A stretch of DNA of 16,050 bases from the IMG/VR virus record IMGVR_UViG_2558860161_000009; one strand, written 5' to 3'. Both the position numbers and the translations under genes were made by a program. A model generated the notes under the pieces. The model worked only from the letters and a program-made list of their open reading frames with translations, was not told the origin of the DNA and ran no database searches. How positions within the stretch are numbered: the stretch's first letter is position 1; each line of letters begins with the position of its first letter. The stretch comes from a virus (taxonomy: Duplodnaviria; Heunggongvirae; Uroviricota; Caudoviricetes). Positions 10,906 to 14,217 of this stretch are shown in pieces.

Positions 10906-11200
10906 AGCCAGAATTACACCTGATGAAGTCAGGGCACATCTTCGACTTGATGATGATTTATCCGGTGAAGGCGAACTTCTGAAAATGTATACCGATGCGG
11001 CGCTGGAAGCCTGCCAGAAGCATATCGGGAAACGTTTTGAAGACGGGCTGGAATTTACCCCGGCAATGCGTGTTGGTTGCCTGATGTACATCGCTTTCCT
11101 GTACGAGAACCGGGAAGCGGTTTCACCAGTGGAGCACTCGGAACTGCCTATGGCTATTTCTGCGCTCTGGTCAGTTTATCGTGACGTAGGGGTGTACTGA
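10898..11200 (+). CDS. Head-tail connector (gp6-like DNA-packaging/adaptor) protein
   Basis: Start at ATG 10898 preceded by AAGGGAG and overlapping the portal stop. N-terminus ITPDEVRAHLRLDDDLSGEGELLKMYTDAALEACQKHIG matches the typical connector N-terminal motif. Confidence 0.7.
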   Translation: MSEARITPDEVRAHLRLDDDLSGEGELLKMYTDAALEACQKHIGKRFEDGLEFTPAMRVGCLMYIAFLYENREAVSPVEHSELPMAISALWSVYRDVGVY

Positions 11201-11640
11201 TGCCGTGGCAACCATTAAGGCGATGCACTGAGCCTGGCTGTAATAAGCGCGTGAAGTCCGGCAAGTGTGAAGAGCACAGGCGGGCTGCATGGCGTGCAGA
11301 GGATGCCAGACGGGGACACCGCCGCGCGCGCGGGTATTCCCGACAGTGGGACAAATACCGCGCCCTGTACCTGAGCAAAAACCCGTTATGCGTGCGTTGT
11401 CTGGCTAAGGGGATTTATACGCCAGCTCTTGTGGTGGATCACATCATTCCCATCAATGGCGGCGGTGATGTTCTCTTCTGGCCTGAGTGGAATCACCAGG
11501 CATTGTGCCAGACGTGCCACAACCGTAAGACGACACGGGAAGATCCAGCCACGAAAGCAAACCGTAAAGCGGGCATGTATCGCGAGCAGGAAGAACGGGC
11601 GGCACACCGTAACGACTGGATGTATGGCGATGATGACTGA
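11200..11640 (+). CDS. HNH endonuclease (packaging-associated)
   Basis: Cys-rich zinc-finger-like segments (CTEPGC...CEEH and C..C...CQTCHNRKT) and HNH-like core DHIIPINGGGD...WNHQALC. Start overlaps the connector stop (TGATG). Confidence 0.85.
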   Translation: MPWQPLRRCTEPGCNKRVKSGKCEEHRRAAWRAEDARRGHRRARGYSRQWDKYRALYLSKNPLCVRCLAKGIYTPALVVDHIIPINGGGDVLFWPEWNHQALCQTCHNRKTTREDPATKANRKAGMYREQEERAAHRNDWMYGDDD

Positions 11641-11817
11641 ACAGGAGCAAACCAGGCTGATACGTGGACTGATAAGGCAGCGTGACACATGGAAGACACA
11701 GGAGACAGAGCACAAAGCCAACAGGACAGGGCGCACAAAACGCACCACAGCGAAGCGATTAACCGACCGTGACCGCGAGGTCATGGAATGTTTTCGCAAT
11801 CGCTGGTGAGGCCGTCA

Positions 11818-11877
11818 GAGGGGGTGGGGGTGGTTTTCAGGACGAAACCGTCCCTGCCGGACACCGACCGCCCCCTC
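11818..11877. other. Candidate cos (packaging) site: G-rich nested inverted repeats between the HNH and terS genes
   Basis: GAGGGGG (11818-11824) pairs with CCCCCTC (11871-11877); inner GGTTT (11832-11836) pairs with AAACC (11845-11849); lies in the 288-bp gap directly upstream of terS. Confidence 0.35.
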
Positions 11878-11928
11878 AAATTTTTGTGCACGGTAATTTT
11901 TTTGAAAATAATTGGGCGAAAAAAGAAC

Positions 11929-12285
11929 ATGGCAAGACCACCAAAAGCCCCCGCTTACCTGGATGAAATCGCGGTCAGGCAGTGGAAGGAAAAATCGCGC
12001 CAGCTTTCCGGGCGGGAAGACCTTACCCCCGCCGACTGGAGCAATCTGGAACTGTATTGTGTTAACTACTCCATATACCGCAAAGCCGTCGAAGACCTTG
12101 CGACGCGCGGGTTCAGCATTGTTAACAGTCAGGGCAGCGAGAGCAGAAACCCCGCACTGAGCGCAAAGGCTGACGCAGAAAGAATAATGATCAAAATGGC
12201 TTCTTTGCTGGGTTTTGACCCGGTAAGCCGTCGCAGAAATCCACCGGAAACAGAGGAAGAGGACGAACTTGACCGCCTGGCATGA
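11929..12285 (+). CDS. terS: Terminase small subunit (P27-family-like)
   Basis: Start at ATG 11929 (MARPPKAP...); the ORF track's 11788 start would run through the putative cos region. Internal ELYCVNYSIYRKA and C-terminal LGFDPVSRRR segments resemble P27-type TerS. Confidence 0.7.
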   Translation: MARPPKAPAYLDEIAVRQWKEKSRQLSGREDLTPADWSNLELYCVNYSIYRKAVEDLATRGFSIVNSQGSESRNPALSAKADAERIMIKMASLLGFDPVSRRRNPPETEEEDELDRLA

Positions 12286-13930
12286 GTACGCAGAAGGCGT
12301 AAAAAACGGCAAAATTACGGCCTGTAAACGACTGAAACAGGCCGTTAAACGGTATTTTTCTGACCTTGAAAACTCCCTTTACACGTTCGATCCGGAGGTC
12401 GTGGAGCGGTTTATTGCCTTTTCCCGGGTGTGTCCGCACGTAAAAGGCGCAATGCGCGGTAGTCCCATTGAACTGGAGCCGTGGCAGCAGTTCGCCTTTG
12501 CCTGCATCCTGGGCTTTAAGGTTAAGGCCACCGGACGGCGCAAATACACCAGCGCATTCATTGAAGTACCGCGAAAAAATGCCAAATCCACGGTCGCCGC
12601 TATCCTGGCTAACTGGTTTCTGGTTATGGAAAACGGGCAGCAGGATATTTACACCGCCGCCGTGAGTCGTGATCAGGCGCGGATCGTGTTTGATGATGCG
12701 CGTCAGATGTGCCTTTTATCCCGACCGTTACGAAAGCGGGTAAATATTCAGGCGCACAAGGTGATACACCCGAAAACCAACAGCCTGTTAAAGCCACTGG
12801 CAGCAAAAGCGGCAACCATTGAGGGGACAAACCCGAGTCTTGCCATTGTGGATGAATATCACCTGCACCCAGACAACGGGGTTTATTCCGCACTTGAGCT
12901 GGGGATGGGGGCGCGTCCGGAGGGGCTGTTATTTGCCATCACCACATCGGGGAGCAACGTTGTTTCAGCCTGTAAACAACACTATGACTATTGCTGTCAG
13001 ATACTGGATGGTGAAGAGATGAACGAATCCATGTTCGTTCTGATTTACGAGCTGGATGATGAAAGCGAGGTTGACGATCCGGCGATGTGGATAAAGGCGA
13101 ATCCAAATATCGATGTTTCCGTCGATCGTGAAAAACTGGCCTCAACCATCCAGAAAGCGCGGGGTATTCCGTCGCAGTGGGTGGAAATGCTCACCAAGCG
13201 ATTCAATATCTGGTGTCAGGGGGCTACGCCGTGGATGGGTAACGGTGCATGGGCGGAGTGCGCCGGAACGTTCGCGGAGGCGGATTTATACGGGCAGGAG
13301 TGCTACGCGGGGCTGGACTTATCATCAACCAGCGATATTTCCAGCGTGTGCTATGCCTTTCCGGTCGGTAAAAAGATTATGCTGGTTTCCCGTCACTATC
13401 TGCCGGAATTTCAGCTACAGAACCCCGCCAATAAAAACCGCGCCATCTATCGCCAGTGGGTAAAGGCGGGCTGGATACGCACAACACCGGGTGACTGCAT
13501 TGATTATGACCGTATCCGTGATGACATCATGGCGGATGCAGAGAATTTCAATATCAGGCTGGTGGGCTTCGATACATGGAACGCCACGCACCTGAGGACG
13601 CAGCTACAGGGGGCAGGATTTGAGGTGGAGCCGTTCCCGCAAACATACCTTCGTTTCAGTCCGGCGGCGAAATCGTTCGAAGTTTTTGTTAACCGGAAGG
13701 TGATTGTGCATCGTGGTGATCCGGTGCTGGCCTGGTCAATGAGTAATGTTGTGATGCAGAGTGACGCGAACGCCAATATCAAGCCGAACAAGAAAAAATC
13801 ATCCAACAAGATAGACCCGAGCGTTGCGGCGCTGATGGCGTTTGGCACATTCCAGGCAGAGCATGAGGAATTTGCATTTGATATGAGCGACAGCCACAAA
13901 GAGCGACTTGCGGCGTTTGATGGGGTATGA
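12269..13930 (+). CDS. terL: Terminase large subunit
   Basis: 553-aa product with ATPase-like N-terminal part (VPRKNAKST resembles a Walker A region) and nuclease-like C-terminal part. Start as given in the ORF track is a TTG overlapping the terS 3' end; the exact start is uncertain. Confidence 0.85.
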   Translation: MTAWHEYAEGVKNGKITACKRLKQAVKRYFSDLENSLYTFDPEVVERFIAFSRVCPHVKGAMRGSPIELEPWQQFAFACILGFKVKATGRRKYTSAFIEVPRKNAKSTVAAILANWFLVMENGQQDIYTAAVSRDQARIVFDDARQMCLLSRPLRKRVNIQAHKVIHPKTNSLLKPLAAKAATIEGTNPSLAIVDEYHLHPDNGVYSALELGMGARPEGLLFAITTSGSNVVSACKQHYDYCCQILDGEEMNESMFVLIYELDDESEVDDPAMWIKANPNIDVSVDREKLASTIQKARGIPSQWVEMLTKRFNIWCQGATPWMGNGAWAECAGTFAEADLYGQECYAGLDLSSTSDISSVCYAFPVGKKIMLVSRHYLPEFQLQNPANKNRAIYRQWVKAGWIRTTPGDCIDYDRIRDDIMADAENFNIRLVGFDTWNATHLRTQLQGAGFEVEPFPQTYLRFSPAAKSFEVFVNRKVIVHRGDPVLAWSMSNVVMQSDANANIKPNKKKSSNKIDPSVAALMAFGTFQAEHEEFAFDMSDSHKERLAAFDGV

Positions 13931-14217
13931 CGAGAATGACTGAAACTGATCTACTAAAAATAATTCGCCGCATTACCGGAATCAGTCAGCAGCCTGACGA
14001 ACAGGCTACACAGCCGGACAGCGTGATAGCCGAAAATTACGCGCGTGTGGTGGCTGAGGTAATGCGCCGTGACGGTATTGAGCTTAACGGCGTGGATATG
14101 CGCAACATACGAACCAGAGTTCTTGAGTTGCTGGCATACCGTCGCCGTTCTCAACAACGGAGGGAGAGCGCGAAAAATACTTACCAGTGGAAGAAGCCGG
14201 AACGGTTGCGGCGGTAG
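13927..14217 (+). CDS. Hypothetical protein (96 aa) downstream of terL
   Basis: ATG overlaps the terL stop (ATGA); basic C-terminus; no recognisable motif. Confidence 0.5.
   Translation: MTRMTETDLLKIIRRITGISQQPDEQATQPDSVIAENYARVVAEVMRRDGIELNGVDMRNIRTRVLELLAYRRRSQQRRESAKNTYQWKKPERLRR

Follow-up and report, generated by a model that had tools for sequence, protein, structure and literature searches.

The cos site of phage lambda is built of three parts, cosQ, cosN and cosB, which are, in this order, an upstream element, the nick site, and a downstream small-terminase and bending site that adjoins the small-terminase gene. Cleavage of lambda cos leaves 12-nt 5′ overhangs; lambda has no HNH partner, and its terminase is unrelated to the one considered here. 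The ends of HK97 DNA have been defined experimentally and carry 10-nt 3′ overhangs, and cleavage is stimulated by the HNH protein gp74 (PMC11331095, PMC9410871). The minimal site of the HK97 small terminase (TerS) lies at +15 to +29, CTAACCCGATTTTTT, and includes an essential A-tract (PMC11331095). Capsid-forming PICIs (cf-PICIs) are recently recognised, widespread satellites that package only themselves and borrow phage tails. Their architecture has been defined, and they need packaging genes of their own (10.1101/2022.09.08.507074; 10.1101/2025.02.11.637232). Packaged cf-PICI DNA was reported, without sequence, to form concatemers through cohesive cos ends (10.1101/2025.02.11.637232). No sequence-level description or map of a cf-PICI cos was found in the literature searched.

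We analysed a 16,050-nucleotide stretch of DNA, hereafter the window. A cf-PICI is recognised as an island of 10–18 kb with an integrase, a replication module, capsid, protease, portal and connector genes and an hnh-terS-terL cluster, with tail and lysis genes absent (10.1101/2025.02.11.637232). A 100% identical sequence is present in the E. coli MS6198 chromosome as an island of ~14 kb between yhdJ and fis. A Pfam scan and the RefSeq annotation revealed genes for int, a DUF927-type primase, an HK97-fold major capsid protein, an S78 prohead protease, a portal, a head-tail connector, HNH, terS and terL. The RefSeq table for this island gives no gene a tail or lysis name; several of its genes are hypothetical. 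With those genes read as hypothetical, the window element has the composition of a cf-PICI by both the Pfam scan and the RefSeq annotation. Judged by its gene content, the window is an E. coli cf-PICI and a relative of EcCIEDL933. It shares with known cf-PICIs the gene order, the absence of tail genes, the cos blocks described below and a packaging module that is 80–90% identical; it differs from them in being another allele and in its integration site between yhdJ and fis.

Many E. coli genomes carry relatives of the packaging region that are 80–90% identical at the DNA level. In the cos region, the prophage-like element Sp7 of O157:H7 Sakai has 85% identity to the window; we regard Sp7 as corresponding to the prototype EcCIEDL933. 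A search of 5426 complete E. coli genomes located the cos region at 579 places in 534 genomes, and the counts for terS were the same (579 and 534). The cos-terS pair is thus found in ~10% of complete E. coli genomes, always on the chromosome and in at most five copies per genome. The two counts are equal, and at the sensitivity used no orphan copy of cos turned up in these 5426 genomes, either on plasmids or at other sites.

The sequence-only reading had proposed a cos site in the HNH-terS interval from which the island is packaged by its own terminase. Our analysis supports both parts of this proposal. With a probability of roughly 85%, we regard positions 11810–11928 as the cos site of the cf-PICI, built like the cos of HK97-type HNH-dependent phages. 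The evidence comprises gene context, homology of TerL and HNH to the HK97 enzymes, conservation of non-coding blocks, collinearity with HK97 cos, the equal counts of cos and terS in E. coli genomes, and the ends of two database records (LR881103.1 and EPP-1). A cos is an expected feature between HNH and terS genes; the block structure and the predicted cut are a testable refinement rather than a surprise. The features of the region are collected in Table 1.

Table 1. Features of the packaging region (positions in the window; blocks, nick zone and recognition site are assigned from the evidence in the last column)
Feature	Positions	Strand	Evidence
HNH endonuclease gene	11200–11640	+	PF01844, E 8.8e-10; phrog_144, E 3.6e-45
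Small gene, 61 aa	11624–11809	+	RefSeq WP_001251188; phrog_3173 over full length, E 6e-27
True intergenic region, probably the whole cos region, 119 nt	11810–11928		gene limits, conservation, alignments
Upstream conserved G-block, GGGGGTGGGGGTGGTTTTCAGGAC	11820–11843		conservation
Spacer, variable except CACC at 11862–11865	11844–11863		59–68% identity over 11844–11865
Predicted cosN (nick zone), CCGACCGCCCCCTCAAATTTTT	11864–11885		conservation, aligned record ends
Predicted small-terminase recognition and bending site, GTGCACGGTAATTTTTTTGAAAATAA	11886–11911		conservation; HK97-like position
Variable leader and ribosome-binding region of terS	11912–11928	+	29–35% identity to relatives
terS, P27-family small terminase, 118 aa	11929–12285	+	PF05119, E 4e-23; phrog_83, E 3e-38; RefSeq start 11929
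terL, HK97-type large terminase	12269–13930	+	PF03354 and PF20441

The interval 11641–11928 had been taken as the gap between the HNH gene and terS, but it is not a gap. A conserved gene for a 61-aa protein overlaps the HNH stop codon and fills 60% of this interval, so that the true intergenic region is limited to its last 119 nt. The resulting map order, HNH, small ORF, intergenic region, P27-family terS and terL, places the intergenic region where an HK97-type cos is expected. The small phrog_3173 product could be a packaging accessory factor. vB_KppS-Ant and Acinetobacter phage AbIPP1 each have a small ORF in the corresponding place, of 50 aa and 72 aa, respectively; when the E. coli version is compared with the Klebsiella one, likeness is apparent only at the C-terminus (..RDRE.xECFRNR).

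The other border of the region depends on the terS start. Most gene callers in the public protein collection give terS as a 165-aa reading frame from an ATG at 11788 (11788–12285), a form that would read straight through cos. The 118-aa start of RefSeq agrees with the domain limits in Pfam and PHROG and with the ATGGCAAGACC start conserved among relatives; in Klebsiella-type relatives an in-frame TAA lies 6 nt before it. The 165-aa form is probably a widespread mis-annotation.

Regions upstream of terS were aligned from ~200 related loci (IMG/VR, E. coli genomes and a Pasteurella satellite), which yielded 106 distinct sequences. Three blocks are common to all of them: GGGGTGGGGGnGGTTTTCAGGAC (the G-block), (G)ACCGCCCCCTCAAATTTTT (the C-rich block that contains the predicted nick zone) and GCACGGnnATTTTTTTGAAAATAA (the block preceding the terS leader). 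The G-block is nearly invariant, as is GCCCCCTCAAATTTTT within the C-rich block. Compared with Klebsiella-type relatives the blocks are 81–92% identical (88–92% for the G-block, 90% for the C-rich block and 81–89% for the third block), whereas third-codon positions in the same comparison are only 52–56% identical in terS and 43–50% in HNH. The 17 nt directly before the terS ATG are the least conserved (~30% identical). The third block contains a T7 tract at 11897–11903, the sole run of seven or more T in the window. Pasteurella Pmp8, which has a TerS of 61% identity, carries the same blocks. These comparisons indicate that it is the DNA sequence of the three non-coding blocks, and not a fold, that is under purifying selection.

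Conserved blocks upstream of an operon might also control its expression. The region adjoins terS on the upstream side, includes a conserved A/T-rich segment and has weak terminator-like matches at 11767–11786 and 11812–11827, and the blocks could accordingly be read as a promoter, activator site, terminator, attenuator or mRNA structure governing terS-terL transcription or translation rather than packaging. Several observations make this reading highly improbable. A scan revealed no σ70-like promoter on the + strand. Of the two terminator-like stems, both weak, one falls within the small ORF and the other, of five pairs, has a tail that runs into the G-block. Covariation is absent, and a search of Rfam with 11500–12100 on both strands gave no match at E ≤ 1. 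The 17 nt preceding the ATG are the part that varies most, and control of expression leaves both the collinearity with HK97 cos and the record ends unexplained. An intrinsic (rho-independent) terminator was considered separately and rejected, the candidates being weak (5–8 pairs). A long hairpin between the G-block and the C-rich block was likewise rejected as a terminator: it is followed by CAAATTTTTG, and covariation is absent.

The packaging proteins were compared with those of HK97. TerL is a full-length homolog of HK97 gp2 (28% identity over ~500 aa, E 4e-49), and its only sequence match in the PDB is a large-terminase chain, 6Z6D (E 2e-43). The HNH protein, taken to be an accessory nuclease of the terminase, is 36% identical to HK97 gp74 (BLASTP, E 6e-17). 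Homology of both proteins to gp2 and gp74 is what an HK97-type cos system should have. The small terminases belong to different families, P27/PF05119 in the window and phrog_5601 in HK97. No sequence similarity between the window TerS and HK97 gp1 was detectable, the TerS sequence had no PDB matches, and an AlphaFold2 model of TerS (33 sequences, pLDDT 74) gave no Foldseek PDB hits with E < 1.

When the two ends of the HK97 record are joined, the sequence reads CAGGGCAGGGGGGGGGATCAAATCTTCAAAACCTTTGCCCCAAATGACCGCCGCCAAA and, across the junction, GTTTGAATTTAACGCTAACCCGATTTTTTTAG, with the ATG further on. The elements of the joined sequence stand in the order GGGCAGGGGGGGGGATC, AAACC, TGCCCC, GACCGCCGCCAAA, the junction and GTTTGAATTTAACGCTAACCCGATTTTTTT. 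A collinear alignment of the window with HK97 cos runs through the G-run, AAACC, TGCC, GACCGCCnCC, AAA/TTT, CG and T7. Its score is 43 against 21.8 ± 6.2 for shuffles (0 of 500 as good; z = 3.4), a moderate similarity. Around the cut, the window is thus moderately similar in DNA sequence to the defined HK97 cos: the GACCGCCnCC core and the T7 tract occur in both. HK106, the helper of EcCIEDL933, has the HK97 cos except for one extra G in the G-run.

In the window as in HK97 and HK106, the cos region has the HNH gene on one side and terS on the other. The window and HK97 are also alike in the G-run located 45–60 nt upstream, in AAACC and TGCC, in GACCGCCnCC..AAA at the cut, and in (C/G)G..ATTTTTTT downstream, before the terS ATG. 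They differ in the sequence around the T-tract, GCACGGTAATTTTTTTGAAAATAA in the window versus CTAACCCGATTTTTTTAG in HK97, and in the small phrog_3173 gene, which stands between HNH and cos in the window; the cut and the overhang of the window are predictions. Acinetobacter phage AbIPP1, with a TerS 40% identical to that of the window, bridges the window and HK97 with CAGGGGGAGGGTGGGTTTTGAC...ATGACCGCCCCCTAAAG. Upstream of their P27-family terS genes, AbIPP1, EPP-1 (Edwardsiella), AS1 (Marinobacter) and Pmp8 (Pasteurella) have the G-block, the C-rich core and the T-tract laid out in the same way. Spacings differ among the cos regions of these phages, that of AS1 being ~20 nt shorter, and their ends come from database records that do not document the method of end determination. 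With lambda cos the window shares the same three-part logic, a likeness of layout for which no sequence similarity is claimed.

As indirect evidence, two linear records from phage collections have ends that fall within the predicted cos. One, LR881103.1 (vB_KppS-Ant), is a Klebsiella cf-PICI record made from phage-preparation DNA with Nextera XT libraries and SPAdes assembly, and the paper on vB_KppS-Ant describes no reordering of it (PMC8006926). Its last bases are ...GGTTTTCAGGAC (in a longer form ...GGGGTGGGGGAGGTTTTCAGGAC), and its first base lies 22 nt upstream of the terS ATG. The record is without 69 nt that are present between its end points in integrated relatives 95–96% identical to it. 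The absent segment corresponds to 11844–11912 of the window (midpoint 11878) and brackets the site only to within 69 nt. Had a circular contig been reordered, no sequence would have been lost. A tagmentation library of a linear molecule would be expected to lack a few tens of bases at either end.

The other record is that of Edwardsiella phage EPP-1, which has a P27 TerS and an HNH gene at its right end. Its end and start, ...CTGCCCGCCTC and CCCCAATTTTTATG..., meet inside the homologous C-rich block; how these ends were determined is undocumented. The EPP-1 record also has a perfect tandem duplication of ~112 nt inside terS (101–324), probably an assembly artefact, which lowers confidence in the record generally. 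The records of BiPBO1, AbIPP1 and HK106 were reordered to the terS ATG and are uninformative on ends, and the ends of the Paraburkholderia phage IPK record bear no resemblance to cos. When ~200 loci were searched for IMG/VR contig ends at cos, the few contigs that start near terS were uninformative, since they begin at gene or chunk boundaries. An ENA contig of cf-PICI size (L210) spans cos uninterrupted.

The predicted cut was placed by comparing multiple and pairwise alignments. Two multiple alignments made with MAFFT match window position 11875 to the first base of both the HK97 and the EPP-1 record, and 11870 to that of AS1, while a left-anchored pairwise alignment with HK97 puts the cut between about 11880 and 11881. 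From this comparison the nick zone was assigned to the C-rich block, and the top strand is predicted to be cut most likely between 11874 and 11875, or within a range of about 11870–11881. If the ends are HK97-like, a 3′ overhang of ~10 nt would be produced. The third block, 11886–11911, is a putative TerS binding site; since similarity to gp1 and a Foldseek match are both lacking, it is placed by its position and its A-tract.

The case for cos had originally been made from nested inverted repeats in a G-rich segment. The G-rich segment is real: the run GGGGGTGGGGGTGG at 11820–11833 is the sole G4+NG5+ motif in the 16-kb window. The repeats also exist at the positions implied, GAGGGGG (11818–11824) with CCCCCTC (11871–11877) and GGTTT (11832–11836) with AAACC (11845–11849). 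The GAGGGGG and GGTTT arms fall at the G-block, the AAACC arm lies in the spacer, and the CCCCCTC arm is within the C-rich block, so that the C-rich arm of the outer repeat coincides with the predicted cleavage site. As a reason for placing cos here, however, the repeats did not hold up. Among dinucleotide shuffles, 49% of those of the 288-nt interval and 58% of those of the 119-nt intergenic region contain a perfect inverted repeat of 7 bp whose arms are at most 60 nt apart. No compensatory double change was present at any stem position in the 106 distinct related sequences. The repeats arise because the conserved G-block and the C-rich nick region happen to be complementary, the G-run standing ~45 nt upstream of the conserved C-run.

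The pairing of the two blocks could itself be the signal, with the terminase or HNH protein reading a hairpin or cruciform. As a single strand the window sequence folds as a long hairpin, GAGGGGGTGG paired with CCGCCCCCTC, better than shuffles do (z about −2.1); in 65 of 71 distinct relatives the fold of minimum energy includes G-block/C-block pairing, and a G-run upstream of a C-rich nick site also occurs in HK97, AbIPP1, Pmp8 and EPP-1. Yet any G-run is trivially complementary to any C-run, and 7-bp repeats are equally frequent in shuffles. For the segment from the G-block to the C-block the relatives have a mean z of only −0.85 (14% below −2). The RNAalifold consensus is weak (−4.3). Besides the absence of compensatory changes, two stem positions are unpaired in most relatives: the outer pair 11820/11875 is formed in 21 of the 106 sequences and the inner pair 11834/11847 in 44. 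The stems are centred at 11847.5 (outer) and 11840.5 (inner) and, not being concentric, have no single dyad axis. Finally, HK97 cos is recognised as duplex DNA (PMC11331095). A structural signal of this kind appears very improbable.

Short dyads are seen in the spacer to the left of CACC: GGTGCC-A-GGCACC and GCTGG-CA-CCAGC in relatives (among loci L055, L079, L083 and L064) and GTCC-CTGCC-GGAC in the window. These lineage-specific dyads were considered as possible covariation and rejected, the pattern having been seen by eye only and the mean fold z of the spacer being −0.67.

The G-block deserves separate mention. A G-rich block 45–60 nt upstream of the cut is found in the sampled cf-PICI relatives and in HK97, HK106, AbIPP1, EPP-1, AS1 and BiPBO1, with a counterpart in Pmp8. 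The HK97 G-run is at about −56 to −43 from the right end of the record, outside the TerS minimal site. No described function for a cos G-block was found in the literature searched. The G-block probably belongs to cos, where it may act in termination as cosQ does or position the nuclease.

Taken with what is known of HK97 and cf-PICIs, the blocks suggest how the island might be packaged. After induction and replication of the island, concatemers would be formed. The island's own P27-family TerS would recognise the conserved T7 block just upstream of terS and position the HK97-type TerL and the HNH protein on the C-rich block. Both strands would be nicked there, the top strand near the predicted position, leaving, by analogy with HK97, a 3′ overhang of ~10 nt. 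Packaging would start from the terS side and take in terS, terL, the att junction, int, the capsid genes, HNH and the small ORF, and would end at the next cos, possibly with help from the G-block. The nick positions, the type of overhang, the assignment of proteins to blocks and any role of the G-block are all what we infer from these comparisons.

Use of this site by the island's own terminase is supported by the homology of TerL and HNH and by the cf-PICI literature. Many PICIs use helper terminases or pac sites (10.1101/2022.09.08.507074), and the island might accordingly be packaged by a headful (pac) mechanism or from a helper-phage cos, the region not being the island's own cos. We consider this extremely improbable. 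An HK97-type TerL together with an HNH protein is a hallmark of 3′-overhang cos packaging (PMC9410871), and concatemers joined by cohesive ends were reported for cf-PICI DNA. For the prototype, the packaging module was reported to be necessary for exclusive packaging of the island. The region differs from HK106/HK97 cos at the TerS site and the TerS is of another family, which fits separate packaging specificities.

For the island's own cos a wider interpretation can be put forward tentatively. The cf-PICI cos may possibly be a diverged HK97-type helper cos in which the GACCGCCnCC core and the G-block were kept while the TerS block and TerS family were swapped, making satellite and helper packaging mutually exclusive. 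Were this true, the G-block would be a conserved, previously undescribed cos element of HK97-like phages, possibly cosQ-like in termination, and the swap of the TerS block and TerS would be the molecular basis of the exclusivity between satellite and helper packaging. Because the TerS block is common to all sampled Enterobacteriaceae and Pasteurella relatives, cross-packaging between different cf-PICIs would be possible. Definition of the cos provides a testable account of satellite/helper exclusion, with a similar nuclease core and a different TerS site and family. It also offers a minimal cassette of ~100 bp for plasmids transducible by cf-PICI particles and a marker to orient and delimit cf-PICIs in genomes and viromes.

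The published description of vB_KppS-Ant is that of an induced filamentous ssDNA prophage, and its record is filed under Escherichia phages; it is in fact a Klebsiella cf-PICI. A tape-measure-like gene (up to 1135 aa; PF20155, PF06120, PF09718) directly follows terL in LR881103.1 (2036–4333) and in the ENA metagenome contig L210 (11637–15044). Unlike the Klebsiella element, the window is without this gene and has only a 96-aa ORF after terL (13927–14217, phrog_1561).
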